A stretch of 63,901 nucleotides of DNA, the filler included, from Rhizaria sp. SCN 62-66 (Eukaryota): NCBI GenBank assembly GCA_001724265.1. It is 3 parts of 3 records of this genome, joined end to end, with 100 filler letters (N's around TTAATTAATTAA, not from the genome) between each part and the next. Parts side by side here need not be neighbours in the genome. Positions count along the whole stretch, not along the records: positions 1 to 21,641 come from MEDY01000445.1; positions 21,742 to 43,375 come from MEDY01000446.1; positions 43,476 to 63,901 come from MEDY01000456.1. The stretch is one strand, 5' to 3'. Position 1 is the stretch's first letter; each line of letters begins with the position of its first letter. Position numbers and translations under genes: made by a program. This document shows positions 18,788 through 56,718 of this stretch, piece by piece. The notes under the pieces are model-generated. The model did not search any database. It worked only from the letters and a program-made list of their open reading frames with translations, and was not told the DNA's origin.

Positions 18788-21640
18788 TCACTCCGGAATG
18801 CGTCGTGCAACAGTCTGAAAATCAACTTCAATCAAGTTCCTCCTTGGGTTTAACGCGTGGTCAAAGTCTTGAAACACCGCAGGACAGCAGCACCCGTGCC
18901 CGTCGTCGAACTGTCTGTTAAACGCGTAAATCAGCCCTATGAATATTGGCACCATGTACAGATAGAGCGGGATGTTTGCGACTGCGAGAGAGGGCGCCCA
19001 TCGCGTATCCGCGGGGTTCCAGAGCTTGTTGACATACAGTGCAAGCAGCACAATCCAGATCAAAAGTGGCGCTAAAGCGCCGATCGTCAGAATGGCATGG
19101 AAAATGCCCTCCCTGTGGCGCATCACCGCCACGGCCGCGACGAACACGACGGCGGTGGCCAGGAACGGGGAGAACGCGGCGAGGCCCGAGATGCTGAAGC
19201 CTTCGAGCTTCGCATTAACAAGGGCGAAGAAGCAGAGGAACTGGCCCCAAACGAACCAAGCCACACAGAAGCGCATGAAAACGCGGTCGAAGAAAAAGTT
19301 GCCCAACTCCTCTGTTTCGCGATCTTGGAATGTGATAAAGGGTGGCAGACACTGCATTGCAAGAAAGGCGTAGACCGGAATAAAGCCAACGGTGTAGGAA
19401 ACAGATATCATGTTGGTGCAGATAAGGACGACCATGATGATTTGCGCAAAGAGGGCAAACACAGATGAAAAAAGCCAGCAGGCGCCGAAACAGCTGTCTT
19501 TGCCAACAACGGAAAGGCAGTGGATCCATTTCGGCATGAGACCGTGGAGGATGGGAAACTGAAAAATCCACACGCGAGAGTGCGGATGGAGGCGGGCACC
19601 GACAACATTTGCATTGGCAACGGGGGCGTCACAGCAAAAGAGCCGAAACCCATTCTAAGCAACACAAAAGAAATCGAGCAACAGTCAACAAACAAGCTGA
19701 TGAGGATATGACTAGCACTGACTGAGGTTCGTGAAACTCTGATATAATTCAATCAAAGAACATAGACACTACATCTTAAGCAACAAAAATCAAACAAAAC
19801 AATACGGAGTCAGCATAAGCACCTCACGTACCTAACTCTCCGAGATCGTCACCACATGCTCGAGTGAAACAGCCTCTTCGGTCGCGGTGGGACTCCCATA
19901 CAGCGCACGGAACGTGTCCGTCAGCGAAGCAAGGCTCACCAGGCAAGACAAAGTGACAATAATGACAAACACAACAGCAGGCCACATTTCGAATATGGAA
20001 TAACTCCCGCCAACGTGTTTGCGGTAGATAAGCAAGATCGGAAACACGATGAACAGCAGCAGGGTCGCGATGTGCACCACATGCAGCTGAAAACACCTGT
20101 ACAGCCGTTGTGCGAAGCTGCAGTGGTACGTCGCCTCGAGCGCTGCGCGGCTCACAGCCTCGTTGGCGGCCTGCGATAAAGATTGGAGCAGCATCTCCGG
20201 CTGCCGCGGCCGCTGCAGCAGTGACAGGGGGTGGACGACTGACGGCACGGAAAGCGCGTCGACACCAGAGAAGATGCCGAACGCAGGTGCTGCGGGCCAA
20301 TGGGACACGGCAGGGCCGAATGGGCTCACTTCCGAAGGCGCATTACGGCTTTCCGCGCTGCCATTGTGGCTGCTACTCTGTGAACTTGCACTGATACTCA
20401 CACTCGTGGTTGCAACCGCACTGTTCACGCTGTTATAATACATAAAAGGCTGGCGCAGCGGTTTTCCGGCCCTCGGCACCGACCCCAGCGCAATACGCGG
20501 CTGCATCGTCATCAGAAACGACTCCAGCGGCGACGGCGCGTACGTGCGGGCGCCACGTGTCGCAGCGGCGGACAAGACAGAGCCCGGTGGAGCAGGCACA
20601 GTGGCAGGCAGTAGGGCGGAATTGGGCACTGTGGAAGACAGACGAGTCGCAAAGCACATGCCGCTCAGAAGGGCGGACGCAGTCTCATTCAGGGCATCCA
20701 CGCCTGGCTCACCGGCGCTCGCACTCAAACTCGTTGTACTGTTGATACCGGTAGTAACCCGAGCGCCAGCTCTCGCGTTTGTGTCCGGGTCAATGGCGAC
20801 GTACTCTACAATGAACGGAAGACCAACCACGTGCGTTGCTGCACTCGACGCGCCGCCAACACCAGCACTGGCGCTGATGTCAGCCTTGCCGGAATCGGCG
20901 TCGGTGGACCCATGTGCGTGGTATCTAGATGCAACCGGGGGCAAAGGAGGGCCAGTTGACTCCAAAACATCACGGTTACTCGCAGTTGTACGATCTGTAG
21001 ATGTGCTGAAATGAATATCGTTTCCATTATGGTCCGCGTTGTGTACGGTTTTGTTGTCGATAAGGTGACGGTCAGCTGCTGCACGTTGCGCGTCCGCTCG
21101 CGCCCATTCGGCAGCCAGCGCCGTGCCGACCACCGGCGCGGGCCCCGCCGCCCCGACCGCGCTGGCGGGCAGCACCGAGCCCACCTCGGCCATGGCGCCG
21201 ACGCCGGGCGAGGCGGCGAACTCACTCCGCTGCATCCACGTATGCGACGTGTTTTGCGCGGCGACTTTTTCGGGCATGATGTTGCGGCCGAGCAAGTGTC
21301 CGGTTTTGTGCGAGGCCCGGCCGGCCCAGACTGGGTGCGCAGAGTAGTCGGCGCGCTGCACAGTTTTGAGCTCTAGCAGCGCAAGACGCTCTTCGGGGGT
21401 AAAGAGCGACGAAAAGGCAAAAGGAGCGAAGTCCTCGCGGCAATTGCCGTCACCAGCAGGAGAATTTGCAACGCTGTCATCACAATCTTCGCCAGTGCTA
21501 CTGATGTTTAAGGCAACGCTGTCAGGTTGGCGAGGTACTGTAACTGCGTTCAGCTCTGCAGTGGAGAAGACTTGAAAGCGGATTAGCGGCAGCAAATCCC
21601 AGAGCTCCAGCCTGACCAACCGGGGATCCTGGTCATCGAG
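18788..21640 (-). CDS. Multi-pass membrane protein, 5'-truncated at contig end; exons 21640-19832 (last codon TAG) and 19654-18788
   Basis: Exon ends ...ISES-TAG directly followed by donor GTACGT. Intron 19831-19655 ends TTGCTTAG, and the next exon (NGFRLFCCD...VWIFQFP) is in frame with the hydrophobic ORF ending TGA at 18788. N-terminal remnant LLPLIRFQVFSTAEL resembles the end of a BACK domain. Confidence 0.7.
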
Positions 21641-21641
21641 C

Positions 21642-21741: not shown

Positions 21742-22419
21742 GGATATCACATCGCGGATGAGTACGACCGATACCTAGTGTGCGGTGAGTTTGGAGCAGA
21801 GCAGTGATTACACTGGCGGAAACCCGTTCGATTGACTGACGAACTGACCTTCGTCAATTACTACTGAGCATAATGACTTTTTGTCGTTGATCGCTGCGTT
21901 AATACTGTCGCTCAGTTCATGATATCTGCCACAGTTCAGGTTGAAACAGAGATATCTGTCACGAGTAACAAAAGTGGTGTTACACATGTATTAGCATCTG
22001 CTAAAAGAAAAAACAACTTGTCAATGCATGTTAAACTGTTTCAAACGGTATATTTCATTTTAATTCATATATACACCGTTTTAGTCCATACTTCGAGTTA
22101 GATTTGAACTTTGTCGTGTGATAGTTGATTTGTGGTGGTGCGTGTGAGGCCATTCTTCATCGCAACGATACCTCTGTCAAGCTTCACAAACTCCGTTAAT
22201 TGGCGATTTGGAGTTAAAAATGGTATCTAAGTATATGTTCATGTGAATCAACTTAATTTTGTGATCAAAGATTGCGTATTCAGTGTGGAATGTACACTTT
22301 TGTACAACATTTTCCTTGACTCACCTCCATATTCTCGTTCGTTTCTCCCCGTGCCGAGCTAGTTCTGGACTTCTTGAACTCCCGTGCGCTGTACTACAGT
22401 GCTTGATTGTCTGGCATTG

Positions 22420-24993
22420 ATGGATCCGGCTGAGGCACGCACCTTTCACGAATCACTGGCGGCGGTCTTGTCGCTGTCACCGAGTGTTTCTGACTTGCGT
22501 TTCCTTCAAAGTCGGCTAGCACAAGTTCAACTTCAACAAAGTGAGCATGTGCCTGGATGCATTGAGCTTGACGCGTATTGGCTCTTGGTTAAGTGGCTTT
22601 GCTCATGCGGAGCCTTCGGGGACGACGTGTACTCAATGCGCTTTGCCAGTCTGTACGTGTTATGGCTGCTCCGCTCTTCCCCGGCCAGCTGCGCTGCGCT
22701 TGCCGCGCGCGGAGCCGCTGGGGCGCTCTACCGCTGCATCGAGTACGAAGACTTCTGTGTGCACTCGGAGCTGCTGATCAAGACCGCAAGCATGTTTGCC
22801 GACGCGCACCCCGCGGGCGTGTTGCCCGTGGGCGAGCGCGCCGCCAGCCTGAGCGCGCTGCTCGCCTTGGCCGGCGACCTCGTCAACGGGCTCGAGAGCC
22901 TCAACGATCCCTCGACGGACGATGACGACGACGATGCTGACGCCGACAGCGACTCCGACGACAACACCGACGAGGACGCTGACGAGGAGGACTCTCCCGC
23001 GGTTGCTGCGGTCAAGTCGGACCTCGTCGCCTGTCTGCTCGCGGCGGCGCGGCTGCTGCGGCACGGCCCGCCCCTGCCGCGCAAGACCGCGGGCGCGCTT
23101 CTTCTGCAGGTGCTGGGGCGCGCCGCTGCACAGTTTGCCTGCGACGCTGAGCGCCACCGCGCCATGCGTGGGGCGCTGGCGAGCACGCTGGCCAGCGCTG
23201 TTGGGGCCTGCGCGGTCCACTCGACTGACGCCGAGCCTCACGCTGACGCTGTCGCTGTTACCGAGGCTGACGTTGAAGCCATGTTTGAGAACGGTCTCTT
23301 TGACTTTGCGTGGCGCATGCTGTTCCGCAACCTCGACCTCGGCCACTACAAACTGGCTTCCCACCAGCAACCCACGCCCGACGCGCTCGTGGCAGTGATG
23401 ACACGCGTGGCCGCGCTGCCGACCGCGACGCTGGAGCGCGCCTTCACGCCGGCGCGCGTGGCGCTTGCGCACGCCGCGCCGAGCCGCTGGCGGCAACTGA
23501 GCGACGCCGCGCGGGCTGCACTCGGGGCCGCGCTCGTGCGGTTCGCGGCGGCCTCGCCCGCGCTTGCGGAACAGCTGCTGCGGAGCGGCGCTCTCCTTGC
23601 GGTGCTGCGGCGACTGGAGCACAACGTGCTGCCTTAGTACGCGCTCCAAGCCGGGCTCGCCGGGTGCGTCGCGCGGCACGCCGTGCGTCGGTTCGCTGCT
23701 GCAGGGGATCGCGCCGCGGCTGTTTGCGTTGCGGAGGAGCTACTGCAGCACGACGCGGTTAAGTGCTGCGTGGCGGGGCTGGCCGCAGTCGTCTTTGGGG
23801 GTGACGCTCTTGGTGGCGACAGCGATGAGTTTGTTGGCAATCTCACCGACATCTTGCGCGCACTGCGCGAACTTAGCGCTGCGGGCGGCGGGGCATTCTC
23901 GGCCTCGTTCGTGAAGGCGCGTGGGCCGCAGCTGCTCGATCTTGTGCGCTACAACACGCTCACGCAGCGAGATGGTCCCGCACTTCCGGAGCTCGCTCAT
24001 CTCCAGACACAGCTGGCGTTACGTGGTATCACGTTACCAGTGACTCTACCAGAGGAGCAGCGCTGCATTGCGGTGGAGGACCTGCGCGCCTTCACTAAGG
24101 ACGGCAGCGTGGACTGGGAGACGGCGTTCGACGCGCACCTGGCGTGCAGCCTCGAGGAAGGCGGCCACCCGCGCCGCGGGCGGAACATCGGGCGGGACGA
24201 CTGGGCCGCGGACCCGGCCCCCGAGCGCGCTGCCGGTGCGCCGTCCGCGGCGGCGCTGGCACTGCTGCAGACGCGCGCCCGCGAGCGCGTGCTTCTCAAC
24301 GCGCACTCCACGATGGATGTCACGGACGCGGTCTCGCTCGTGGCGCTGCAGACGGACATCTACGGCCCACCCGTCCACGGCCACATGATGTCTACGCTGC
24401 TGGTTGCGCCCGACGACGCGCGGCTGCCCAGCCACGCGATGCACTTTCGCGCGGGTATGGACCGCAGCTCCATCGGGTGGTACGTGCACCGCTGCTTCCG
24501 CCCGCCGGGGCAGCCCGCGGGGACCGCACTGCCGTATCTGGCGCTTCACAGCAAGCGTGCGCCCTGCGCTACGGGACCCATCGCGCCGGTGCCTGACGAC
24601 ATCGTCTACGGCGAGCACGCGCCCGCGGCGGCGGACGTTGAATACGCTCCCGGTACAGTGCTGGTGCGGCCATGGGCCGTGCGGCCGGCCCCCAGCGTTG
24701 ACGGCTGGGGCGCGAGCGACCTGCCCATGTTTCTCGTGTACCGTCCGTGCGCGGCGAGTCTGCTGCCGGGCGCGGTGCCCGTCGGCCGCGTGGTGTCATG
24801 CACAGCGATGCATGACTGGAGCGACGACGGTGAGAATCACGCAGACGCTCCTGACGGGGCCGAGAGGCCGCTGTTCGACGAGACAATGCTCGCATGCTTG
24901 ACTGCTCTCGCAGCGTGTGACCACTGCAGTCACGCCAATGGTGCAAATAGTCGGGCTCAGATTGGCATTCCATACTTTGAACCTCCGCCTTAA
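22420..24993 (+). CDS. Hypothetical ~857-aa protein (helical-repeat-like N-terminal part) with one in-frame TAG at 23635-23637
   Basis: ORFs 22384-23637 and 23683-24993 share a frame and are separated only by TAG plus 15 sense codons (EHNVLP*YALQAGLAGCVARHAVRRF). No AT-rich spacer. Final stop TAA. Start codon uncertain. Confidence 0.7.
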
Positions 24994-26752
24994 AAACTTT
25001 GGCCTCCGACGACAAAGCTCCATATGAGTATGTGTACCAACAGTACGTAATACATGTTTTAACGGAGCACGCCCTTCTCTTTTCGCTGTAATGAACGAAT
25101 ACATGTTGACATTGTTTTCATGAATAAATACACATTCATATTCATATTTCACAAACATGTCAGCAAGATAGCTTCTTTCGCAGAGTCGGAATTCATAACC
25201 AGGTCAAGATAATAATTCATCACAGTGTAGCAGATACTGATACAACTTATCGTATGTATGCTAATAAGACATGTGTTTTGTGATGACAAAGAGCCAGCAG
25301 TAAAAACGACATCAAACTTATGTTTTGGAAGTGAAACGAGGTACATGTAGTGGGCATGCCTGCGTTTGTGTGTGTGTGCGCGCGTGGCTTGAGAGCAAGA
25401 CACGAAGCTTGTGACAAGCGACACGAGTACACAACAGGCAATGGAGCTACTTGCACGGGAGGTAGTGGCAAGTTTTAAAAAGTAAAAATAAAAAAACATG
25501 ATTTGTTACAAAAATGCACATACTAGCAGCATGGGGAACGAAGGGGGAGATTATCCACGCATTGAGTGTTGAGGGAGCTGGTTGGGTGTGCCAATGCAAG
25601 TAAGCGTTGCATGATGCACACACCAGACGAGTCAAAACAATCACACAAAAAAGAAACAACAGCAAACAACAGCAAAGCAAAACAGTGTTTGATGGAGATC
25701 ACAAAGGATAATATGAAAAGAGAACAAAACAGAAGTGGTAGGAAAAAGAAAATGGAGACAAAGAAAGCTCCAATAACAACACGCGCGGATAACATCAACG
25801 TGTGAAGTACCAGTTACAAGCAGTGCACTGAAGAACAGAGGAAGTGTGTGTGTTCTAAGGATTAAACAAAAAAAAGCAAGCCAAAGCAACACAACAACCA
25901 CTGCTGACAACAGCGAGACGATAAACAAGCGAAATTTTGATTAGGCACAAAAGCAACAACACGCAAACAAGATGAATCAAGACGAAGAGGTGTTGACAAA
26001 GCACACAAATTTAACGCATGTCGTCGCGGGTTGTGCGACAACAAGTGTACTACGAATAAAGAGGCTGTAGCCAAGCAGGCGTTGCATACAGTTGCTGTTG
26101 CGACGCCCGTATAAAAACAGAGAAGAAACCGCGGTTCACGGAAGCGATTCACACGCACACACACACGCCGCCGCGGCGGTCCACGACCTGCGTTTACTCA
26201 GTCTGCCAGCCAGTCAGCTAGTCAGTCTGCCATTCGGCCTGAGAGTAAGTCTATCTGTCTGATGGTCAGGCCGCGGGCTTGCTCAGTCTCGGCGCCCGTG
26301 GCGCGCAACAACGAAGACAAGGACGCGGGCGATGCTAAGAAAACAGAAGTGGGAAAGCGGAAGGCAGACGACGGAGCAGACAAGGGCGAGATGGGTGTAG
26401 AGAGAGCGAGAGCGAGCAAGGGGCTGGGACACACACGCATAAACAGGCACGCGAGAGAGCACTCGCGCGCGCGGGGGAGTGTGATCTCACAACATAAGGG
26501 AAATTTGGGTGAAGGAATATAGTAATGAGGGAAATGGCATGAAGCCAAATCAGGATCAAATCTCAAAAACACACACACAAACACTCACAAAACATGCGGA
26601 CAGAACAGCACGAGAGCGTCGTCAGCTATCAGCTAGCTGTCTGCTCTTTACGCCGTCCGCCGCAGAGACGACGGTACGATGTTACATATTACATAGATCG
26701 CTCGCTCTGCGGAGTTTGTGGAGTCCGTGCGTGGCCTTTAAGTTAAGCTGCC

Positions 26753-28568
26753 TTAGGCCTGCTTAACCTCGACAACCTACTGGGCCTGCGCCTGTGCCTG
26801 AGCCGCGGACATTTGCGGCGCGGAGGCCGCAGCCCTGTGCGCGGAGACTGAGGCGTGGGATGCGTGGGACCCGTGGTATGCATGCTTGCCAGAGGACGGC
26901 AGCCGCTGCGCATGCTGGTGTTGATACTGCTGCTGCTGCTGCTGCTGGTGACTGTAGTGGCCGTGTTGCTGGTGGCTGTAGCTGTTGTGCTGCTGGTTGT
27001 AGTGGCCGTGTTGCTGCTGGTACTGGTTCTGGTAGCGCTGCACATGCTGCTGCTGCTGCACATGCTGCTGCTGCGGCTGCTCCTGATGCGCCGACAACGC
27101 GTCAGGGCTCACACCGGCACCGGCACCGGCACCAGCGGCGGCGGCAGCGATTTGCTGTTGCTGCTGCATGTTGTGGATGTGGTGCTGCACGGCCATGATC
27201 TCGTGCGGAATGCTCGTCACCACGCCCTGGCCACTGACGCCACCGAGGCCGTTAAGGCCGCCAAAGCCGCTGAGGGGCGCCAGCAGCGGCGAGCCCTGGC
27301 TGAGCGGCGACCCGCGGTTCAGAGGGGAGCTGTGCAGCGGCGAGCCGCCCTGGCCCCGGCCGGGGGACGGCACGGGCGACGGCGCAGACGACTGAGACTG
27401 AGACTGAGTAAGTGCAGAGTTGACTGTCGCAGCAGGGGGCGCGTCGCGGGGGCGGCGGATGCGCCCCGTGGCGACGAGCGCGCCGACGACCGAGAGCACG
27501 AGGTCCTCTGCGAGCGCGACGCAGCGCGGGGAGCCGTGGATCATCACGTGGTGCACGTAGGGGTCCGCGACGTCGGGCGCGACCGTGACGGCGCACAGCG
27601 CGGCGGTGCGCACGGCCTTCAGCCCGGCGCCCGCGCGGCCGATGACAGCGCCCACGGCCGCGGTAGGGATGCCAAAGCGGCGCACCGTGACCGTGGGCAT
27701 GGTGGGCACGCCGTTGACCACGAGCGCGGGCGGGTACGGCGCCGTCAGCGGCAGCGCGCCGTTGCCCGGCACGTAGGGCGCGAAGCGCTCGCCGCGCCGG
27801 TCGCGCTGCAGCGCCACGATCTCGGCCGTGATGCGCGGGATGAGGGTGAGTAGCGCGACGCGGACCGACGTGGGCGTGCCCGTGACCGTGACGCAGACCT
27901 CAGAGCTGTGCGGCAGCGGCTCCGTGCCCGTCTTAATCACCGCGCCCGTCTCGTACTGGATGCGCTGCACCGTGCTGCCGTCGCGGCCGATGATCGCGCC
28001 CACGGCGGGCCGGTGCACAAGCATGCAGAAGGACGCCATCGACGCGGGTGTCACCGCCTCGCCGCGCGCAGCCGCCTTGATGCTCATGCACATCGTCGCC
28101 ACGTGCACCGCGGCCTCGACCTGGTTGATCAGCGGTGCGTTGATCACCAGCACTCGGTCTTGGATGATGCGCGCAATCGTTTGGTTCTCGGGGGCTTTGA
28201 GCACACTCAACACGACACCGCAGGCGTCGCGCAACGCAGACACAGCGGCGCCGCGCTTGCCGATAACTGCACCGATGTGATCGCGGTCAACTGAAACAAA
28301 ACAAAACAAGTGGAAATAAAAGGATTGGTTAGATGGAGTTACAAAGATAGTATGCAAAATTGGCAGCACTAGTCATGTCAAAAAAGGGAAAGAAGCACGG
28401 GCCAAGGAGTTGCTTGCGGCAATCGCATGCCTCACAAAAGCAAGCATACAGGCTTAAAATAAAGGAGAGTTGACAAAAATTGAGTGGAATCAGATTTAAA
28501 AGCGTACCTAAAGCACGAATGCTGAAGTTAGTCTTGGGTGCGGCAGCAAACTGCGGGGTTATCGACAT
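26753..28568 (-). CDS. Triple-KH-domain RNA-binding protein (PCBP/hnRNP K-like); exons 28568-28508, 28290-26753
   Basis: Three GxxG KH motifs (IGAVIGKRG, VGAIIGRDG, VGAVIGRAG). A phase-1 intron joins MSITPQ...SIRAL to VDRDHIG. Gln/His-rich tail AQAQAQ-TAG-VVEVKQA-TAA. The end would be 26777 if TAG were a stop. Confidence 0.88.
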
Positions 28569-30343
28569 GTTTGATATTTTGCTTAGAGAAGCGACACGGA
28601 GTCTGCAGAAGAGGGAGACAAAAGAGAACAGTTAGCGCCTATCTCGAAAATCCCCATGCATAATTGAAAGATAAGATAGATTATTCGCTGGAATTACTCG
28701 GTAATGCTAAAATATGCATCCGGCGCGCGTGTTTAAAGCAGTATGCATCCGCAAAAGATGTTTACTTCTCGGCCTTCGCCGACCAGTACCCAGTTCCGAG
28801 GGCAGTGCTCACAGTCAGTTAGGTCGAAATTGTGGTGGAGCGCGGAAAGCAATCTTCAGAGACACAGCTAACTCATAGTGCAAATTAAGCAAGGGATTGT
28901 GGTATTATGTAATATTTCGTACCTAATTAAAAGATTGGATCTTTCCCGATTTCTCTGAATTACCTTCAAATCCCTACCGTAAGCTCAGCAGCAGAAATGT
29001 CCAAGAAAAATGCATACTGTCACGGTGTGGGGCACCAAAAGTAGATCACGCAGTTCATGAGGGAAAACCGTACACAAAGTGTGCTAGAATATGCTGAGGT
29101 CAAATTTCTTACCGTGATTACATGATCTTGTTAAGGTATGTGTGGTCAAAGTTCATCCCAAAAGAAGCGTTGCGACCGCATCTGCAGGCTGCATAGACGA
29201 GGCATAATCACACGAAGAAGTCTACGTGGCAATGTCTTAATAGCACCAAGACTCTTCGCATTCGTTAAACCGCACTCAGTGAATTGATATGGGAAAAAAG
29301 AGGTGCGTCTCTGGTTGATTAAGTGTAACAAGGCTAGTTCGAAGGTCTGACACTCAGCTTGAAGCAATGTCAATCGAAACTGTAATAAGATCGAATCGGA
29401 ATACAAATAAGTTATGGTATACATAACATGGGCATCAATGCTGGATTGCACTGAAAGATTGTCATTATGATGTTTACTTAAGATACACCAGTTCTAGATT
29501 TAGGATGTTAGTGGGTTTGAGCGACGAAGATGACGTGATGAAGGGTTAGAATCACAAAACGAAGAGCTTTGAAAACGAAATTGAAGATACAATCATTAAT
29601 CAAAGCTTGAATTGCACAACATATAATTGAGGCAAGTATACGCGCATGATTGACTGATTGTTGTAAGAGAAACATGCAGTGGGCCTCATGCTATAACCAC
29701 CAAGCGTTCCAGATGAACAGTATATAGAGTCACAGAACAGAAGCCATAAAATATGTCTTCAAAATATGTGTGTAATTAGCGCATTCTCATATCATGTTAT
29801 GCGTACGCATCATAATGGCATTGTTGTGCCGCACAAACCTTCCCAGTGTGTAGATGGAGGGAGTGAATCTTCTTATCGGCATGCCGATTTTAGTCGAAGC
29901 GATTTAAGAAAGAAAAGGCGCAATACTGGGACAAACAAGTTTTTGCTCAGAAATAAAAACACATCATTGAGCAAGAGTCAACGTCCAGCAGTGTTTTTCA
30001 ACGGCATGGGCGAGCGTAATCTAAACTTTCTTTTCCTCCGACAAGCCTCTTCTGTTTCTCCCTTTGCTCAGAGCCCGGGACCGTTGGGTGTGACTGACGT
30101 CAGTACAAAACAAGAGCTGGACGTGGCCGTGTTCATCAAGACGAAGCTGTACCACCCAGGCAGTATATCATTTGCGTTGGTGTACATAATACGTTTATTA
30201 TAGCTTCTGCAGATATCGTCTGCGCCCACTAACCTATGGTCCGTCAACACCCAAGTCTCCTTTGTTACTCCCCTTCTGCATGCTCGCCCAAAGCCCCCTA
30301 GCTCACACACAGCTCACTTTTCCTGTTCGTTTCTACCCCGTAG

Positions 30344-32216
30344 GGCAACACACACAACCCGTCTCCGGTCCTATTGTACGTCTGATCTCTGTCTCTGCTT
30401 CTGTCTCTGCCTCTCGCGTCTCTGAAAATGGCTCTGCCAGTCCGCCTCATGTCACAACTCATGTCTCGTCACTCACGCTTCACCCCTTTTACCCCGCTTG
30501 CACCCCGCCACAGGGCCGGCGACACCTTCATGGTGACGCCGATGTTTAACTCGTCGAAGCAGTCGAGCCTGGAGGCGTTCGACGAGGCCTTCGGCTCGGA
30601 CCACGAAGACGATGTCGCGCTCTCCGCCCGCGGTGACGGTGACGCCGCGGGCTCCCCAGGGGACGACCTCGACGGGCTCGGCGCAGCGGCTGCGGCTGGG
30701 GACATCGAGGAGGAGCGCAAGCAGGCACAGGCCGCCAAGGCCAAAGCAGAGGCGAAGGCGGAGGCCGACGCAAAGGCCAAGGCTAAGGCTGATACGAAGG
30801 CCGCGGCGGAGGCCAAAGAGAAGGCTGATGCCGACGCGAAGGCTAAGGCCAAGGCCGAAGCCAAGGTCAAGGCCGAGGCTGAGGAGAAGGCCAAAGACAA
30901 GGCCAAGGCCGACGCAAAGGCCGACGCAAAAGCCAAGGCCGAGACTGAGGAGAAGGCCAAGGCCCAGGCGAAGGCTGACGCGAAGGTCAAGGCAGACGCC
31001 GACACCAAGGCTGAAGCCGCCGCCAAAGCCAAGGCTAAGGCCGACGCCGCTGCCGATGCCAAGGCCGACGCCGCTGCTACTTCTGCTGCTGCGCCAGCGA
31101 ACGACAGCATGAGCGCCAGCGCCAGCGCCAGCGCGGACGGCACGGCGGCGCGCGACACGACGCGCGACTTGGTGCCGCTGCGGCTGGCCTCGACGGGCGC
31201 CGCCGCGGCCGCCGCGGGCGGCTTCGTGGAGCGTCTACCGCTGCGGCCCGTGGACTGCCCCGCACTCGCCGCGCTTGTCGGCGCTGAGGCCGCCGCCGCA
31301 TTCGACAAGCTCCTCGCCAGCGCCAGCGCCAGCGCCAGCGCCAACAGCGGCGCCGACGCCGACGCCGAGGCCGGCAAGGCTGCGGCCGAGGCTGCGGCTG
31401 CGGCTGCGGCTGCTGCTGCGCGGGCGGCGCGCGCGGCGCCGGTGTCCCCGCTGGCGGCGCCGCTGCGGCTGCGACTGCTTGTGCGCAACATGCGTCCGCT
31501 GGGCGGGCTCGCGCGTCCCGCCGTGGGGCTGTTTCTCCTCCGCGCGGCCGCGGGGGGCCGGCCCGCGGTGGCGGCCGTGGCGGCGGCGCCAGGGACGCCT
31601 GCGTTCCCGCTGCCAGGCGCGACCGGGCTGCTCTCAGAGCCCGCGCTCGCGGAGCCCGCCGCCGAGGCCTGGGCCAAGCTCAACGCGAGTAGCAGCGCCC
31701 CCAACGCCAGCGCGAGCGCCAGCGGCAGCGCGAGCGCTGGCGGCGACGAGCTGGCGGGGCTGACGTGGCTGCTGGCCGTGGTGTCGGAGCAGCGCGTGCT
31801 GGCCGTGGCGCGGGTGCCCGCGCGCGCGCTCGCCGACCGCGTCGGCGCAATCGCCGCCAAGACGCGCGAGCTGCGGGCTGCTGCGGCAGCCGCAGCGCCG
31901 CTCTCATTCAAGCGCGACTGCCAGGTACGCGAGATCACAGATGTCACACATGTGTGATGATTGATGATGCGATGATGATGTGTATTGTTCGTATTCGAGT
32001 GGAATCTTCGACTATTCGGATCATATCTTGATGTATTACGCCAACATGAAACGAAAGGATGATGTTATATTCACATTTAACTTTATTCGCTGTGTTATGT
32101 TTCTCCTTTTTCTTGTGTAGCACCCATCGAACGACACCGAGTGGGCTGGCATTTTCGCCGGCGAAGGGCTTCACTTCCTGATTGAGCCCGAGATCCCGGT
32201 CGATGACGCCGCCTAA
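30344..32216 (+). CDS. Hypothetical protein with Ala/Lys/Glu repeat; exons 30344-30375, 30514-31924, 32121-32216 (5' exons unresolved)
   Basis: Frame-compatible GTACG..AG introns. KAKAEA/KADA repeat at ~30720-31080. Last exon HPSNDTEWAGIFAGEGLHFLIEPEIPVDDAA-TAA. Confidence 0.65.
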
Positions 32217-32662
32217 TGAGGCCGCTGTCTCGGCTGTAGGACCGCTGGCGGCTGTGAACGACTGTGAACGGCTGCTTATGGGGGCGTCAAAGGGGCTGCC
32301 GGACCGTCACTGACGGCTTTCTCATGATATACTTAGACTATATGGAGTAAATTTCGCCAATAAATAGAATGTATTGTAGTTCTGTACTGATCATGTGAGA
32401 TACTCGCGTGCTGTCCGAATCTGATAGCATTTCATGTTGTGTAGTGCATGAGAACTAAGAATTGAGGCTGTTAAAGTTCTTTTTGAAGACTTTTGACTCA
32501 AAGCTCTTCACCACGGATGCTTGATCTGAGCGCGCATTACTTGTCATACGAGCCACAGTCTCCGTTAATTGCGCTGCCATATCTGTACACGTATCAATAG
32601 GGAATTATATATACTCACACTTTATTATTTGTTTATCCGTGTCGATCTTGGTCTGCTTTTAG

Positions 32663-40300: not shown

Positions 40301-43300
40301 CCACCCGCACGACGTCGCGGACTCGTCCGAGGCGTGTCTGCGCGCACTGCTGGACCTGCCGCTGACGCCGACGGAGCAGGAGCTGCAGCAGACGATGTTG
40401 GCGGCCGCCGCACAGGCCGCGCTGGCCGCGGGCGCGAGCATCACTCCGCAGCAGGAGGCCGCGCTGGCGGCCGTGGCGCAGCCGCCCGAGGTGCCGCCGT
40501 ACATGCCGTCGCTGCCGGCGCTGCAGGCGGCGCAGGAGCAGTGGGCGCCGCTGCGCGCGGTGTGGCCCGAGTTTGACGCGTGGGCCGAGCGCGACCCGGC
40601 GACTGTGTGGCCCGCGCTCTGCACGCCCGTCGACACGCGCGAGACGCTCGAGGCGCAGCTCTGGCCCGCCGCGCGCTCGCTGCTGCAGCGCCAGCAGCTG
40701 CTGCTGCAGCAGCGCGAGGCCGTGCTCGAGCGCCTCAACGACGTTCGCGCGCAGCTCGGGCTGCCCCCCGTCTCCAGCTCCAGCGCCGTCGCTGCGACTT
40801 CTGCGGCGGCGAGTGAGGAGACCAAGACTGAGGGCGCCGCGGGGGCCGCGATGGGCGACGGCGACGACGCCGCGGCCTCTGCATCTTCGTCCTCTGCGGC
40901 GGCGTCGGCGGGCAAGAGCGCGCAGCGGCGCGGGCGCGGCGCGGGCACCACCGAGACGAGCAACAGCGTCAACGTGCACGCGCTCAGTAGCGCGGCGGGC
41001 GACGGCGCGGCGGCGACATCTGCTCTGCTGCAGGCGGCCGAGGCGGCGAGCCAGGCCGCCGAGAACGAGCTCAGCACGGTACAGACCGAGGTCAACGCGG
41101 CGCTTGCGCGCGCGGTCGGCGCCGCGGGCGGCAACTCGGGCGGGTCCACCGGCGCGACGACGCGCGGCAGCTCCAACTCGAACGCGGCGGCCGCGGCGGC
41201 GGGCCACCCGCTGAACCCCATGGTCGGGCTCGCCATCCAGGCGGGCGAGTCGGAGACGGAGACGCGCACAATCGCGCTGGCGAGCCTCATCGAGGCCGCG
41301 CTCGACACGCTCGTGTGCCACCGGCCGTACTGGACCGTGCTGCAGCGCCACCACGACATCATCGAAGGCATGCTGCGCGCGTGCTACGAGCGCCCGCCCG
41401 CGGACCCCACGGTGTACTTCGGCGCGCTGCCGGCGCAGACGATGCGCGACCGCGAACGCGACCGCGAGCGCGTGACGCGGTCGCGCGACGGCTACTCGCG
41501 CGCGCTCGACGGGCTGGCCGCGCAGTTCGGCCCCGGCGAGGGCCCCGCCGCGTTCCAGAGCGCGCGCCTCAACTCGCGGCGCGAGCGCGACACGCGCGAC
41601 CGCGACCGCGACGGCGACGGCGCGCGCGCCGCGGACCGCGCGGCGGCCAAGCTGGCCAAGGACCTTAAGGCCGAGCGCGACCGCCTGCGCCGCACCAAGG
41701 GCCGCCCGGGGCGCTACTTCGAGTCGGCGCCGGCGCACCTGCAGCAGCAGGTGCAGGCGCAGCAGGCGGCGCAGCAGGCGGGCCGGCAGCGCGTGAAGCG
41801 CGCGCGGCAGGGCGCGGCGGGCGTGCGCGGCGCGGGCCACCCGGGCGCGGGCGGCGCGTACATGCACTACGGCGACCAGTGGGGTGGCTATGGTGGCGAG
41901 CAGGAGGCCGCGGCGGCCGAGGCGCTGTACGACCCCGCGCAGGCGCCGCAGCGCTTCCATTTCGACAACGCGTCGGCCGTGCAAGTGCTGGAGGAGCTGT
42001 TTCCCGATTCGGTGTGGGCCGATTTCCAGTCGCGCCACCCGTCGAAGCAGCAGCAGCTGCTCACCGAGCTCATGGACCTCGCGCAGACGCCGCTGGCCGC
42101 GCCCGCGCTGGCGTGTCTGTTCCCGCGCCTCGTGCGCTCCGACGGGCTCGACTTCGCGGTCGTGCTCGATGTGCTGACGGACCCCAACTCGGTGTACCTG
42201 CCGCAGGAGGTGGTCGTGAAGCTCGACGTGGGCCCGCGGCTGGAACACCTGCCCGAGACGGACCTGGACCTGCTGGTGCTCAACGAGCCCGTGCAGGGCT
42301 GCGAGCGCGCGGCGCTGGTGGCGGCGCCGCTGCACGAGCAGGTGGAGCTGCTCAACAACACGGCGCAGCAGGGCGTGACCAACGTTATGACAGTGGGCGA
42401 CGTCCCGCTCGCGCACGCCGTGGGTGACTTCGACCGCCGCTTCCCGAACCTCAACCCGCTGCTGCCGGTGTCGCCCGCAGCGATGCGGCTGCAGGCCGAG
42501 CTGCACTCGCTGCAGGCGTGGCACGCCACGGCCGTCGGCCACGAGGCGGCGCACGCCGCGCAGGCCGCGGCCGAGGGGCTGCCCGCGCCCGACCCGGCCG
42601 TGCCGGCGCCGGGGAACGTGTGCACGTCGGCCGAGGTGGAGCGCGCGTACCACGAGCGCGAGCAGCAGCTCGCGCAGCTCCAACTCGCCGCGCTCGAGGC
42701 GCAGCTCGAGGAGGTCGCTGCCATGCAGGCCAAGCGCGAGCGCGTGCGGCTCGTGCTGTACAACCGGCTGATGGAGATCCAGGCCGAGCGCGAGCAGGCG
42801 GAGCAGGAGCAGGAGGAGCTCATGCGTCGCCAGGCCGCCGCGCGCTACAACGCCATCGTCTCGCGCCTGGTCGCGGACCCGCTGGCCCTGACCGTGGACC
42901 AGGTCCCTGCGGGCGCGGAGCGCGGGCTCGCGCTCGAGGCGCAGACGCTGGTCGAGCAGGAATGTCTGGCGGAGCTGCAACAGTCGCAGCACGCCGACAC
43001 GATGGCGCTGTGGAGCGCGGCCGAGGCCCGCGAGCGGGCCGAGCTGGAGGACGCGCGCCGCCGCGAGGACAACGCGCTGCAGCGCCAGCACCTGCAGCTG
43101 CAGCGCCAGCAGCAGCAGCACGAGCAGCGCCAGCTCCAGCTCCAGCAGCAGCAGCAACAGCAGCAGCAGCTGCTGCTGCGCGGCGAGCACCGCGCGGAGC
43201 ACCACCGCGACCACCGCGACAAGCACCACAGCGAGCACAAGGACAGCTCGCCGGTGCGCGGCTCGACGCAGCGCCGGCCCTCGGCCGCGGCGGCGGCGTC

Positions 43301-43375
43301 GGCGATCACGGCCGCCGCCAACGCTAACACTCGCGAGCGCCGCGGCGGGCGCGCCTCGGCCGCGGCCGTGCGCCG
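37335..43375 (+). CDS. Class II histone deacetylase (HDA1/HDAC6-like) with large insertion and long C-terminal extension; exons 37335-37359, 37699-37793, 38016->43375 (3'-truncated)
   Basis: Spliced N-terminus MEPHPTRTGYTSDAKLLLH...HALEGPRRL...GLVERC. Motifs RPPGHH, GFCLLNN, DWDVHHGNGT, TINVPL, SAGFD and LEGGY all present. Confidence 0.92.
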
Positions 43376-50324: not shown

Positions 50325-52433
50325 ATGTCATATTCTTCAAATAATAATCGCGCAGGTGCTGCTGGTGGGGCGGGACACGCCCCTCAGCGCGCCGTTAGTG
50401 CAGCCAACCAGCCTCTGCTTGACGAGTTGGGCACTTGGTTTGCGATCGAGGACTCGCGCGGCAACAACCACATGCTCACGTCTATCCGCAAGGTACGCAT
50501 GGATTCTACCTTTTACTCGCAGTATATCCCTTCACTTCAAGAATTCATGGCTACATCTACATTCTTAGGAACTTCTGACCGTTGATGGTTCTCACTCCCT
50601 CCTTAACTTCTCTTACACGGTCTGCTCTCTTTGCACTTCAACTCCATTGCTCTCTCAGACAATGGCCGGTGTGGCCGCCTTTGCGACGCCAATTACAGAC
50701 GGCCGCCAGTGCGCGTCGCTCGACGGCGTGGGCCCGCACACGGCGGCCAAGGTCACCGAGATCCTCAAGATCCTGGGCCTCTACGTGTCCGTATCTGCGG
50801 GGCCCTCGCTGACGACACCGCCGCGCCCGGCCGACGCGGCCCGCGCCACCGCGTCTACGCTCTCACTGGACGAGCTGGAGCGCGCGCACCCGGCCAGCGC
50901 GGCCAACGCGCCGCTGCTGCGCGTCGTCGTGTCGTGGCTGCGCGCCGCCACCGCGGCTGCCGCGACGGGCGCCGCGCTGGCCGCCGGCTGTAGCGCGCGC
51001 ACACTGCGCGTCGCGGCCGAGTCCGTCCGGCGCTACCCGGTCCCGCTTGTGCCCGAGGATGCGCGGTGCCTCAACGGCGTCACGGCACAGCTCGCCAAGC
51101 GCATGAGCGCGTTCCTCACTGACGGCGTCGGGGCAAGGTTCGTGAAGCTTATTTCTTTAATCAGTCGCTGTTCTATATTTTAGAGTATTTTATTGTTTAA
51201 TTTAATGAAAACTGCCTTATTTTAAAGATATTTTCCGCACTCTTGATATATCCCGACTTTTACCACCTTTGCACGACTGCATGTTAGGCGTGAGGCTGCA
51301 CTAGTCGGGCTCGCAAGCAAGGCCACCGGGGCCCCTGTCCCTGCGCCTGTGCCTGCTCCCGCGCCTGGCTCCGCGGCCGCCGCCGTTGCTGCTGCTGTGG
51401 GGGCACCTGCTGCGGCTGGAGTGGTGCCGCTGTCAGTGCAAGTGAAACAACAGTAGATTTACGAGCAAATTCAGCAACGGCAGTACCAGCAACAACTAAG
51501 GCAACAACAACAACAGCAGCAGTACAAAGACGAGGAGGGCGACAACTACGAGTGGATGTACGATTATGACGATGAGCAACCTAAGGCCGCCGCCGCCGCT
51601 GCTGCCGCTGCCGCCGCTGCCGCGGCCGACGCCGCCGCGGCCGCTCCTGCTGCTGGCGGAAACCGCGGCCGCAAGCGCACGGCGCCCGATTCCCCGGCCG
51701 CCGTGAAAGCCTCCCCCGGCCGGGCTAACACCAACGCGAGCGCCGTGGCCGTAGCCGCCCCGGGCCTCGCCCCCGCGCCGTCCGACCCTGCGGCCGACGC
51801 CGCGGCGGCCGCGGTGGCGTCCGGCCCCGGGGGCTCACGTGTGGTGCACCCCAAGTCGTTTCCGCCGCTCAAGTACATGCCGAAGCCTGCGTCGGGCGGC
51901 TACGCGCTGCTGATCGCGCTGTGGGAAGGCACGGCGGCGGCCTGGGAGCAGTGGACGCAGCGCCACAACGCGCCCGGCACAGAGGCCACGGCGCCTCTGC
52001 GCTGGTCGCGCGAGGTCCAGGGGTTGCCGTCGCTAACGCCTGCCGAGGCCGCCGCCGCGCTGCCGCCGCCGCCGCCGGGCGCGCGGAAGCCGCGGCGGCC
52101 GACCAAGGCCGAGATCAAGGCGGTTGGGCTAGCCACGCTCGAGATCTCCCCGCGCTTCAAGTACTACATGACCAGGCAGGCGCTGTTGTCGACCGCGCCG
52201 CGCTGGTGCCCGGGCGTGTGGCGCGCAAACGCAGCCGAGCGCTACACGGCCTGGTCCGCCATGGCGATGCTTGTTCGCAAGCGCTACGTCGTGTCTTACT
52301 ACCCGGCGGGCGCCTACTACATGGCTTACCAGCTCACGCCCGCCGGTGCCGTCGTGGCCAAGAGCCTGTGGCGCGCGGCGCACCCCGGCCGCGAGGCGCC
52401 CGCGCCGCGCTTTCGCGCGGGCGCGCACGGCCG

Positions 52434-52467
<34 letters not shown>

Positions 52468-55400
52468 CATAATGACGACGCGGGGGGCGAGGACGGAGAG
52501 GACCTGGCGGCCGTGCTGCAGCGGCAGCAGGCGCTGGCACACGCCAACCCCGGCGCGGGCCAGCAGGGCGCTATCGCGCGCGCCTACGACCGCAAGCGCG
52601 GCCGCCTCAGCTTTGGCGGCGGCGGCTACGGCGGGGCCAGGGCCGGCGGCGGCGGCCTCAGCCCCGGGCGGGCGCTGGCACTGGGCGGTCTCGGCCTCGG
52701 TCTCGGTGGTGGACTCGGACACGGGCTTGCGATGTCAGGCGGCAACGATGGCGCTAACGCCGGTGCTAAAGCGGGTGGTGGCCTCAGCGCCGAGCGCATC
52801 CAGTTGCTCACGAGTGCGGGTATGGGTCTGGGCATGGGCGTCGTCCCCAATCACGGCAACCGGAAGAGCGGCAACAGCTTTGCCGGTGGTTTTGCCGGCC
52901 TGGGCAAGGGCCACGTGCTGGGCGACGAGCCTCTCCCCCCAGCCCGCGGCCCCGGCGTCTCTCCGGTGCGCAGTCTCGCGGCGGCGGCCTCTCGTGCCCA
53001 TGGCCAGCAGCCGCTGTGGATGCAGCAGCAGCAGCAGGCACATGCGGCGCAGGCCGACGCCCGCGCGAACGCGCACGCCGAGGCCATCGCGGCCAAGATG
53101 GAGGCGATCACTGACGCGCACAACAGGCTTAAGGCCGACGTTGCAGCTGCTGCAGCCGCTGCGGCCGACAAGAAGCTCTTTGGGCCCGCGATCGCCTCGG
53201 ACTCTGTCTCTGCTCCATCGCTTGCGCCTGCGAGCTCCAGCGCTGCTGCTGCTGCTTCTTTGAAGGATGATTTCATTGAATATGACATCGACGACGATGA
53301 CGATGACGATGACGACGACGTGGGCGCCATCTTTTGCGCCATCGAGGACGATGACTTTGGCAGCGCCGAGGACGCGTACGGCAACGACCACCTGCTTGAC
53401 TACGACGACTACGTCGACAACGACAGCGACGCCTACGACGACGACCATTAGCTCGACTCGACGGGCTCGAAGAAGCGCCAGAACAAGACGCCGCGCGCCT
53501 CTCAGAATGCCGGCTCTAGTGCAAGTGCGAATGTGAGTGTATTTAACGTTGACGATGACGACGATGACGACGACGATCTCGAAGCTGTGCTGGTCGCTAT
53601 TGCGAAAGCCGAGGAAAACTACCGTCTCTCGCAGCAACAGCAGTATTCTTCTCGATACGGCAGCGGCAACAACAGCGATATTCAAATCCTCGGTGACGAC
53701 GATGGCGATGACGACTATCATTACCCGCAGCAGCAACGCCCCCGACAGCCGCCCGCATCCTCATCCTCCGCCTCAGCCTTAGCCCCCGCCTCCGCTTCCT
53801 CAAGCGACCGCTCGCTGGGGCGGTCGCCGAGCTTCTCCGAGGGCGCCGCGGCGGCTGCGGTGGCCGCCGACTGCAGTCTCGACGACGCGTTTAAACTCAT
53901 CTCGGCCGCGGAGGCCAAGGCGGCGGCCGCGGTGGACGTTGCTGCCGCCCCCGTCGCGAGTGTCAGTCGAAGCAACAGCGGCGGCAACGCCGCGCGGCGC
54001 AGCGAGGAGGACGAGGAGGAGGACCTGCAGCGCGCGCTGGCTGCCGTCGCCAAGGCCGAGGCGGAGGCCGAGCAGGCTGCGGCGGCGGCCGAGGCTGAGG
54101 CTGCTGCAATTGCCAGGGCCGTGGCCTTGGCTGATGCTGAGGAGGCCGAAAAGGCCGCAGCCAAAGCCAAAGCCCTGGCCAGTGCGAGCGCTGCCTCTCC
54201 TGCTCCTCGTATGAGTGCAAGTACGAGCACGGACGCGCGGAATGGTGCTGCAAACATTAGCGATGGCAGTGGTAATGACAGTGATTTCTCCATTGTTGAG
54301 ATTGTTTCATCTTCCTCATCATCATCGTCCTCTTCAGCGTCTTCAACGTCGTCTTCTTCAGCATTCGCGTCGAAACATGAGTTCAAGAGGTCGAACGATG
54401 ACTCGAGCAAGAGCAGTGCGAATACTGCGCCTGCTTTTGCTGCTGTTACTGCTACAACTGCGAGCCGCGATACGATGAATGACAGCGACGTCATCGTGCT
54501 CTCCGACACCAGCGCAGCCAACACGACTTGCGACAAAGACGACGACACCTATAGCTGCAGCCACAACCACAACAACGATGACGACGGTTATAACAACTAC
54601 GACTACGATAACTACTTGCTTGACGAAAGCTACAGCAACAGTACCAGCGCTCTCAACGACAGCAACGCTGGTGCCTACATTCACAGCAATGACAACAACA
54701 GCAGCAACAACAGCAGCAGCAGCAGCTCAGGGAGAACTGTGAGCGACAATACCCTTACGAGTGACAGTGCTGCCGGCGCAGCTTCTGCTGCTGCTGCAGC
54801 TGCGGCTTCGTCTTACAACGACTCCAAATCTAAGTATGATTACGACGACGATGACGGTGCCATTGATCTCTCTTGCTCGCAATCCTCGTCGTCATCGTCT
54901 TCATCGTTATTCTCTGCCTTTGTGCTTGCGTCAAAGACGACGCATGCATCAGAATCATCAGCAACAGTATCGGCATCGGCATCATCGTTGCGGCTTGCCA
55001 CGAACGCCAGTCTAAGCACCCCCATAGACACCGACGCAACCGCAGACTATGACGCCACCGCACTGCTCTTATTTCTCAGCGACCACAATAGCGCCGCCGC
55101 CGCAGCCCCGGCCCCGCTCGCTCTCTCCCGCGCCACACACCAGCAGCAGCGTCAGCAGCAGCAACGCTCGCAAGAGCAGCCCCCATCGGCGTCGCCGCTG
55201 CTGCTGTGCCCGCCGCCTCCGTACAAGCCGACGTTCATGGGCCCCCCGCCGTCGCTGTCGTCGGCCCCCGTGGCGGGCGCCTTCTCGCTCGCGCACTTCG
55301 ACATCGTGCTGCTGCTCGACCTCCGCGAGTCCTACTCGGGGCCTAACTCGGACGCTTGGCGCGCTGCGCAGAACCCCGCGCGCCGCGGCGGCCGTGGCGG

Positions 55401-56718
55401 CGCTGGCGCAAGCGGACGCGGCGGCCGCGGCGGTGCTTCTGCTGGCGGCGCCGGCGGCGGAGGCGGCTCGGGTGGCGGCGACCGGTCCCGCACGGCCGTG
55501 GAGGCGCTTGCGCGGATGCTCGCATCGCCGTCGCTGCGCGTCGAGGTCTCCACGCTGGCGCTGGGCGACGTGCTCTGGGTCGCTGAGCACCGCGCAACTG
55601 GCCGCCGCTGGGTACTGGACTGCGTGCTGGAGCGCAAGATGACGGCGGACCTGGTCGAGTCGATCCGCGACGGGCGCTACCACGAACAGCGCGACAGGCT
55701 GCGCGCTTCGGGGCTGCGCCGCGTCACCTATCTCATCGAGGGGCCAATCAAGGGCGAGAAAGGCCCCACGCTGCCGCGCTCCTCCACCGCCCACAGCGGC
55801 GGCGGCGGCGGGGGCAACGCGGCGGCTGGGGCGGCTGGCTGGAAGCCCGACTTCGGCAGCAAAGCCTTTTGGGCCAACAAGAACAAGCTCAAAAAAGCTG
55901 CCGCCGCCGCCGCGGTCAACGGCGCGAGCGCGGGCGGCATCGGCCCGCAGTCTGCGCTAGCGGCGCCGGGCGCGGACGCGGGGCTGGACCCGCTGCTGCC
56001 CAGCAACGGCGCCGCGGGCTTAGGCGGCTCGGGCGCCGCGGGCTCCGGCTTCCGACTCATCGACACGGCCGCGCTGGAAACCGCGCTGGCGACACTCGAG
56101 ACGTGCTTCGGCTTCGCGGTCTACAACAGCAGCGGCTTCGACGACACCAAGGCCTTTCTCGCGACCGTGCACGCCGAGCTCACGGCGTGGTACGGTGCGC
56201 CGGAGGTTGCGCGCCGCGTGCGGCTGCAGGACCCCGCCAGCTTCAGCCTCAGCCCCGTCGCGAAAGGCTCTACTGCAACAGCGGCGACGGCGGCGGCGGA
56301 GTCGGCTGCGATCCGCGGTGAGGGCGAGCTGTTGGAGGCGTTCAACGCGCGCATGCGCAAGCGCGGGCAGTTTTCGCACGCGACGCTGTTCCTCTCGCAG
56401 CTGCGGCAGGTCAAGGGCGTCGGCCCCAGCCAGGCTGCGGCGCTGGCGCGGCGCTTCCGCACCCCGGCGCGGCTGGCGGCCGCGCTCGAGGCCTGCGCCA
56501 CGCCGCGCCTGGCCGACGCCATGCTCGTAGAGGTCTGCGCGGCGGCCGCAGCGGCGGGCGAGCGCGCGGCCAAGAAGCTGGTGCCCGCGGCCGCGGCGCG
56601 CGTGCGCGAGGTGTGGATGGAAGCGAGCTACGCGAGCGCGCCAGCACAAGGACCTGCGACACAGAGGACTGTCACGATGGAGCCTGATATCGACGAAGAT
56701 GATTACGTTTTCGAGTGA
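50325..56718 (+). CDS. MUS81: Crossover junction endonuclease MUS81 (~2025 aa); exons 50325-50492, 50659-51137, 51288-56718; two in-frame TAGs (51454-51456, 53449-53451)
   Basis: N-terminal HhH (NQPLLDELGTW...SLDGVGPHTAAKV), winged helix (YMPKPASGGYALLIALW...YTAWSAMAMLVRK...YQLTPAG), ERCC4 nuclease (LLLDLRE...LGDVLWV...VLERKMTADLVESIRDGRYHEQRDRL...YLIEG) and C-terminal HhH (QLRQVKGVGP). All colinear in one spliced frame. Stop TGA. Confidence 0.92.

Follow-up and report, generated by a model that had tools for sequence, protein, structure and literature searches.

Nuclear genetic codes in which UAG has been decoupled from UAA are known from few lineages, the available parts of two reports (PMC5304391, PMC11687900) giving one rhizarian, one fornicate, one green alga and a few ciliates. 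In the fornicate Iotanema spirale, UAG specifies Gln and UAA and UGA are stop codons, and in the sainouroid rhizarian exLh, UAG specifies Leu and the stops are exclusively UAA (56) or UGA (15), as described in the available text of PMC5304391. Among the ciliates, Hartmannula sinica, Trochilia petrani and Protocruzia tuzeti translate UAG as Gln and keep UAA as a stop, which corresponds to NCBI table 15 (available part of PMC11687900). Phyllopharyngean ciliates and Protocruzia are described as reading UAG as Gln or Leu, and an oligohymenophorean ciliate also possesses a UAG-only reassignment (PMC11687900 and PMC10553269, as far as the available parts go). The green alga Scotinosphaera, in which UAG is Ser and UAA a stop, is mentioned in PMC11687900. 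Here we describe in-frame TAG triplets in the genes of a 63,901-nucleotide stretch of DNA, referred to as the window, from an uncultured eukaryote deposited as Rhizaria sp. SCN 62-66 (GenBank assembly GCA_001724265.1). The window consists of three contigs joined by runs of N (positions 1-21641, 21742-43375 and 43476-63901). It is likely, with a probability of roughly three in four, that this organism and at least one related species read UAG in their nuclear genes as an amino acid and end translation at UAA and UGA. A preliminary description of the window had proposed that UAG is a sense codon and that UAA and UGA have kept their role as stops, and this core of the proposal is supported by homology that extends across the TAGs, by the TAGs of an ortholog in the related species and by recurrence of the TAGs in independent assemblies. 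If the mechanism is like that put forward for other UAG-only codes in the available part of PMC5304391, UAG would be decoded by a transfer RNA (tRNA) with the anticodon CUA, one anticodon change away from a standard tRNA, and the release factor eRF1 would have lost efficient recognition of UAG.

The pattern in the window is the one shared by the known UAG-only codes, in that UAG is internal and UAA and UGA are terminal as judged from the gene models, and it differs from them in the rarity of UAG and in having no TAG in a conserved column. As in I. spirale, the code would be a nuclear one outside the ciliates with UAG as the only reassigned stop, detected from in-frame UAGs in otherwise intact genes. 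According to the available part of PMC5304391, UAG in I. spirale aligns to conserved Gln columns and is frequent enough for a likelihood test, and a UAG that was the first downstream stop was judged more likely to be sense in 81 of 81 sequences, whereas in the window the codon is very rare and never occupies a conserved position. The organism described here also differs from I. spirale in being GC-rich with AT-rich introns of about 150-270 nt. With exLh it shares the UAG-only reassignment and the status of an uncultured organism known from sequence alone. For exLh, however, 384 in-frame UAGs in 71 genes, mostly in conserved Leu columns, are reported (PMC5304391, available part), and per gene TAG is rarer in the window by a factor of about 100. 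If the residue inserted here is Gln, the organism would share its codon table with H. sinica, T. petrani and P. tuzeti (PMC11687900, available part). Scotinosphaera resembles the present case in having a UAG-only reassignment outside the ciliates. Ciliate genomes are AT-rich and have tiny introns, whereas the genes of the window are 63-75% GC, the introns are 142-266 nt long and the contigs are over 20 kb in length and carry multiple genes. A full-text literature search, mostly at the level of abstracts, found no paper on a GC-rich non-ciliate from wastewater with this code.

The preliminary description had placed seven in-frame TAGs at 19832-19834 (-), 23635-23637 (+), 26777-26779 (-), 35785-35787 (-), 36448-36450 (-), 51454-51456 (+) and 53449-53451 (+), and all seven triplets were confirmed as TAG on these strands. 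It had also stated that the frame continues with normal codons in each case, which held for 23635, 35785, 36448 and 53449 and, less strongly, for 51454, and did not hold for 19832 and 26777. Coding potential was scored with a codon-usage model trained on the confident genes of the window, with the gene under test left out. By this model a coding signal in the same frame was present on both sides of 23635, 35785, 36448 and 53449, the last having the highest scores of all seven TAGs on both flanks. The signal at 51454 was weak upstream and clear downstream, and the sequence downstream of 19832 and of 26777 was noncoding-like. Five of the TAGs (23635, 35785, 36448, 51454 and 53449) are clearly internal to coding sequence, with support from homology or domain matches as well as codon usage, and the TAG at 19832 is probably internal as well. 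The triplets that follow the seven TAGs were found to be TAC, CAG, GTG, CTC, ATT, GTT and GTA, in agreement with the preliminary description, which had argued from their diversity against a programmed readthrough motif. That argument was borne out, and programmed stop-codon readthrough was rejected since the sites share no 3' context and five of them are located in the middle of genes with essential domains downstream.

The TAG at 23635-23637 is codon 406 of an 857-codon gene without a named function (22420-24993, + strand, ending at TAA), which has 80 database relatives at E<=0.001 in a representative library. The relatives P0003/P0083, P0005 and P0041, whose proteins are 52-68% identical to that of the window, cross the TAG column without a gap and have Arg, Cys and Arg, respectively, at this position. 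Database entries with 100% identity to the window protein are fragments, of which P0006 and its cluster member P0088 end exactly at the TAG and P0004 restarts behind it. Gene callers applied to other assemblies have therefore split the gene at this codon, and the fragments on either side are on record from 2-4 contigs each. A protein atlas search with the C-terminal half of the 857-codon protein returned no usable match.

A scan of metagenomes for the 857-codon gene gave three loci. One of them (L001) matches the window at 100% identity, TAG 23635 included, the second (L002) carries the colinear ortholog of a related species, and the third (L003) a more distant relative; scans of genome-contig and viral-contig collections gave no further loci of relatives. 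The frame of the L002 ortholog is open for 837 codons from ATG to TAA without an internal TAA or TGA, and its TAA lies at the same aligned place as the TAA of the window gene. This ortholog has two in-frame TAGs of its own, at codons 4 and 161, which stand opposite Ala (GCT) and Glu (GAG) of the window gene, with P0003 also having Glu at the second position, and the TAG of the window gene aligns in turn to TGC in L002 and to CGC in L003. Identity between the window and L002 proteins is 214/383 (56%) upstream of TAG 23635 and 309/449 (69%) downstream. Among the identical residues, 36% upstream and 26% downstream of the TAG are encoded by a different codon in the two species. Since identical residues are specified by differing codons on both sides of the TAG, the frame is under purifying selection on both sides.

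All three loci come from one metagenome, where they show 100% (L001), about 61-67% (L002) and about 53% (L003) identity to the window, which suggests that several species of this clade live together there. The copy of the gene in L003 shifts its reading frame within the aligned part (L003:1955-2677), and this shift could be a sequencing error, an intron or the mark of a decayed copy. Downstream of the ortholog in L002 is a P-type-ATPase-like sequence (L002:2700-3530) with another in-frame TAG at L002:2848. Its two conserved blocks are in different frames and are much closer together than is usual in P-type ATPases, an odd arrangement.

The TAGs are not assembly errors and are fixed in several assemblies. 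Contigs assembled from run X3, which belongs to a different study, cover 26433-30004 and 35188-37202 without a single differing letter and contain the TAGs at 26777, 35785 and 36448 in identical form, and with 23635 in L001 all four TAGs of the middle contig recur elsewhere. None of the TAG sites is spanned by any of the 16 pieces listed from X8 and X10, two runs that are labelled RNA-Seq and flagged as probably DNA. Over 21742-41741 these two runs have a depth of 0 across the AT-rich segment 28412-29745 and near 0 across 25077-26410, together with short perfect pieces in GC-rich exons. This pattern would fit transcripts, but both runs carry that flag, and foreign contigs are drawn to GC-rich DNA of low complexity.

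The data on the 857-codon gene and the recurrence of the TAGs bear directly on the possibility that the organism uses the standard code and that the TAGs are premature stops, in the form of nonsense alleles, young pseudogenes or genuinely split genes, the genome being polymorphic or in decay. Under the codon usage of the window, a single step to nonsense yields TAG in 2,088 of 2,797 precursors (75%) because the codons end in G or C, and the arithmetic from codon counts gives a probability of about 0.13 that seven of seven random nonsense changes would be TAG. The contention of the preliminary description that errors or pseudogenes should also have produced TAA and TGA is for this reason a weak one. 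Premature stops would also be in keeping with the location of every TAG at an unconserved position and with the change of frame in the L003 copy of the 857-codon gene. Yet four or five of about 17 genes are affected, three of them twice if L002 is counted, without any frameshift, TAA or TGA, and the same alleles occur in several assemblies and in another study. Moreover, the ortholog of the second species keeps its 837-codon frame open and conserved despite two different TAGs, and conservation is higher downstream than upstream of the TAG in the window gene. We consider it very unlikely that the TAGs are premature stops in a standard code.

UAG as a sense codon is further indicated by the MUS81 gene (50662-56718, + strand), which has a TAG on either side of its winged-helix domain. 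Exon 1 (50662-51137) begins with the ATG at 50662 and encodes an HHH_8 domain, and its open reading frame (ORF) is linked in phase to the large MUS81 ORF of exon 2 (51288-56718, ending at TGA) by a 150-nt AT-rich intron at 51138-51287 (GTTCGT...TTAG, GC 0.32). Pfam matches to MUS81-like_WH, ERCC4 and EME1-MUS81_C all lie in exon 2 downstream of the TAG at 51454-51456 (+). The order along the gene is therefore HhH, TAG 51454, winged helix, TAG 53449, ERCC4 nuclease and C-terminal HhH, which places the first TAG between the HhH domain of exon 1 and the winged-helix domain and the second (53449-53451, +) between the winged-helix and nuclease domains. With the standard code the MUS81 protein could not include its nuclease domain. 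The sequence around 53449 encodes GC-rich, Asp/Ser-rich low complexity and contains nothing that resembles an intron.

Two further TAGs are located in a gene for an acyl-CoA-dehydrogenase-like (ACAD-like) protein (35644-36945, - strand, ending at TGA), which has a weak match to Acyl-CoA_dh_M. The TAG at 36448-36450 (-) is one residue before the W-x-L-S-G-x-K motif of the middle domain and the TAG at 35785-35787 (-) is 47 codons before the TGA, each being held by a lineage-specific insertion. A word-indexed search with the ACAD-like protein found two relatives only, P0001 and P0002, of 300 and 323 residues. Both of these relatives are without the insertions of the window protein. They align with it upstream of TAG 36448 at the block AFAAGYQAAL, between the two TAGs at FVPEVPHA and PFR-ED, and behind TAG 35785 at the motif RD-PL-RVA--AR--R, which aligns with the C-termini of both. 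Since the homologs align before, between and after the two TAGs, the ACAD-like gene is one unit across both.

The two ACAD TAGs, placed in insertions that the homologs do not have, invite the explanation that TAGs are removed prior to translation, whether by RNA editing or with unrecognised in-frame introns of small size or non-canonical type. An in-frame 66-nt segment, GTAAAT..CAG, matches the second ACAD insertion, and the sole GT..AG pairs around TAG 36448 span 15 or 18 nt. Five introns in the window are backed by continuity of domains or frame, namely those of the KH, MUS81 and zuotin genes, one that leads from a big gene to a SPRY exon and one that leads from 57020 to 57718. They are 142-266 nt long, AT-rich (GC 0.32-0.44) and have the donor GTACG in four of the five and GTTCG in the other. 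In contrast, the 66-nt segment has a GC of 0.59, is coding-like and is without the GTACG donor, and segments of 15 or 18 nt are far below the intron sizes of this genome, and introns over 35785 and over 36448 were both rejected on these grounds. No segment that resembles the supported introns is found around the five internal TAGs, and the surroundings of 53449 are GC-rich coding sequence. At 23635 the relatives are colinear and align residue for residue at equal length, which excludes an intron there. Removal of the TAGs before translation is, in our estimation, most unlikely.

The remaining two sites are those at which the downstream sequence is noncoding-like. The TAG at 19832-19834 (-), within a gene at 18788-21640, lies directly before the donor GTACGT and is a candidate for the last codon of an exon. 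Across the window the GTACG motif has a frequency of just 0.00064 per position. The intron proposed here (19559-19831) has a length of 273 nt and a GC of 0.44, ends in TTTTTCAG and is in phase with a 257-codon ORF for a membrane protein that ends at the TGA at 18788. Since the donor follows the TAG directly and the 273-nt segment behind it is AT-richer and in phase, this TAG is probably the last codon of its exon. A database search found no longer protein that joins both parts of the 18788-21640 gene, and neither part has a Pfam family.

In the KH gene (26753-28568, - strand), exon 1 (28508-28568) is separated by a 217-nt intron (28291-28507, GTACGC..TTTCAG, GC 0.39) from exon 2, which extends from 28290 downward. 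Three KH_1 stretches identified with Pfam are located upstream of the TAG at 26777-26779 (-), which is seven codons before the TAA of the gene. This TAG may be either a sense codon or a real stop, and by its sequence it is indistinguishable from an ordinary stop. No relative of the KH protein passed among 8,000 scored candidates, probably because low-complexity words crowded the list.

It is possible that UAG has a dual meaning, being read through efficiently inside genes yet terminating some of them, such as the KH gene at 26777, much as in certain ciliates and trypanosomatids with ambiguous codes, or as with a strong natural suppressor in competition with eRF1. The short distance from TAG 26777 to the TAA and the noncoding-looking codons between them would be accounted for, and a very low frequency of in-frame TAG in genes of low codon bias (p=0.012, post hoc; see below) is what would be expected of selection against a poorly decoded codon. 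On the other hand, none of the 16 counted gene ends needs TAG, and the site at 26777 is equally well explained by a sense codon followed by a short tail. The known ambiguous codes, as far as they are covered by the available part of 10.1101/2022.04.12.488043, affect all three stops, and here TAA and TGA are never internal. A dual meaning of UAG is unlikely in the light of these findings.

Both UAA and UGA serve as real terminators in the window. The statement in the preliminary description that genes have no internal TAA or TGA was upheld, there being none in the 13,193 codons of the window taken to be coding with confidence; ORF ends account for the 4 TAA and 8 TGA tallied in this set. TAG numbers 3 in frame per 13,193 codons and is depleted there relative to the two off-frames, which have 21 and 40. 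A code in which all stops are ambiguous was rejected on the same count. The number of gene ends had been given as 18 (10 TAA and 8 TGA) and requires correction, since two of the listed ORF ends (15343 and 57652) lie in introns and are not real gene ends, and a recount gave 16 real ends, 7 at TAA and 9 at TGA. Both GC and GC at third codon positions (GC3) drop behind the 16 real ends, and none of these requires TAG; the KH gene may end at TAG 26777.

These ends also bear on a code in which UAA and UAG are both reassigned and only UGA stops, with TAA being rare through GC bias. UAA and UAG usually change together according to the available part of PMC5304391, and codons ending in A are rare in the window, where CAA occurs 59 times and CAG 500 times. 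Nevertheless, TAA is the end of seven genes, with GC and GC3 declining beyond it, the 857-codon gene and its L002 ortholog share a TAA end at the same aligned residue, and no internal TAA occurs in 13,193 codons despite 59 CAA, which together make the reassignment of both codons extremely improbable.

Several observations weigh against a sense UAG. TAG is nearly as rare in frame as a real stop. The TAGs at 19832 and 26777 are compatible with ordinary termination, and those of the ACAD-like gene are situated as a small in-frame intron would be. No TAG falls in a conserved column, which means that there is no positive evidence for which residue is inserted, or for the insertion of any. The occurrence of TAG only is not significant alone, in view of the 75% of nonsense changes that would give this codon. 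No tRNA gene was found in the window with ARAGORN and Rfam, and the evidence base is small, consisting of one 64-kb window and three short loci.

The preliminary description had assigned UAG to Gln as the probable residue, and no test applied here supports this assignment. Three TAG columns can be aligned, all of them variable, with Cys/Arg/Arg, Glu/Glu and Ala as the aligned residues. Summed over these columns, the BLOSUM62 scores are 6 for Arg, 5 for Glu, 2 each for Lys and Gln, -2 for Ser, -12 each for Leu and Tyr, and -17 for Trp, from a sample that is tiny and whose relatives are not independent. With Leu, Tyr or Trp the columns are fitted less well than with a polar residue, and the alignments weakly disfavour these three as the meaning of UAG. 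Leu, the residue specified by UAG in exLh, is among the lowest sums, and Ser, the residue in Scotinosphaera, is one anticodon step from CUA. If the tRNA is limited to those a single anticodon step away from CUA, the possible residues include Gln, Glu, Lys and Ser. By analogy with precedent, Gln would be the most likely polar candidate, followed by Glu, Lys and Ser, and it is favoured only by this precedent and by one Q-rich context, that of 51454. The context AQAQAQ*, which had been cited as fitting Gln, does not do so, since the TAG there holds the Ala position of an Ala-Gln repeat.

In-frame UAG is very rare in the window, with five to seven occurrences in about 15,000 codons (taken as the sum of ORF lengths), and is confined to genes of weak codon bias, where it occupies insertions or unconserved positions. 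This suggests that the reassignment is young, with codon capture in progress, or that decoding is inefficient. The codon-bias scores of TAG-bearing genes are 0.45-0.65 versus a median near 0.8, and the top-scoring genes have no TAG. A one-sided Mann-Whitney test of 4 TAG genes against 13 gave p=0.012, the comparison being post hoc and the scoring model having been trained on the same genes. The scores of 22420-24993, 26753-28568, 35644-36945 and 50662-56718 are below those of 10 of the 13 TAG-free genes or exons. Low codon bias, the rarity of TAG and its differing positions in sister species fit a sense codon that is young or poorly decoded.

If UAG is indeed a sense codon, the window would represent another independent non-ciliate case of a UAG-only code, in an environmentally widespread uncultured organism, and would add to what is known of how UAG can part from UAA in meaning when there is only one eRF1. 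The great rarity of the codon and its differing positions in sister species may mean that the reassignment is at an unusually early stage. More tentatively, the organism could belong to a previously unrecognised clade of GC-rich uncultured eukaryotes at an early stage of UAG capture, in which UAG has gone as a terminator, is sparse at unconstrained positions in weakly expressed genes and differs in position between sister species, maybe with a dual meaning or a residue other than Gln. We regard this extended scenario as rather doubtful, but if true it would show codon capture under way in nature, in the nuclear genome of a non-ciliate. There is also a consequence for annotation, as public protein sets already contain these genes broken at TAG by gene calling with the standard code or in the style used for prokaryotes.

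The exons of the window are very GC-rich, with a GC3 near 90%, and the introns and intergenic DNA are AT-richer. Window DNA was matched in metagenome runs from bioreactors and wastewater, three of which contained at least 90% of the sampled words, and one of these three best-matching runs belongs to another study. None of the runs in this listing is recorded as RNA. In addition to the KH, MUS81 and ACAD-like genes, Pfam identified genes for an eIF3m-like PCI protein, zuotin, a histone deacetylase and a COPI-associated protein, as well as a SPRY exon and a ribosomal S8e fragment, and several long low-complexity ORFs have no Pfam family. No plastid-related gene was present among the window genes scanned, nothing links the organism to green algae, and no eRF1 gene was found within the window or in L001-L003. 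The histone deacetylase ORF (37608-43373, +) leaves the end of its contig, and its translation matches Hist_deacetyl in two stretches that are separated by a long low-complexity insertion rich in Ala, Gly, Asp and Ser. A further TAG at 7361-7363 (+) is in the frame of a 2,662-codon ORF (7355-15343), 15 codons before the first ATG, and was taken as part of the 5' untranslated region and left uncounted. The supported introns are located at 28291-28507 and 51138-51287 and in the regions 15037-15250, 17057-17322 and 57609-57802. Introns in the window are thus few and AT-rich, with an unusually uniform donor in a GC-rich gene context, and this uniform donor may be of use in placing the organism.

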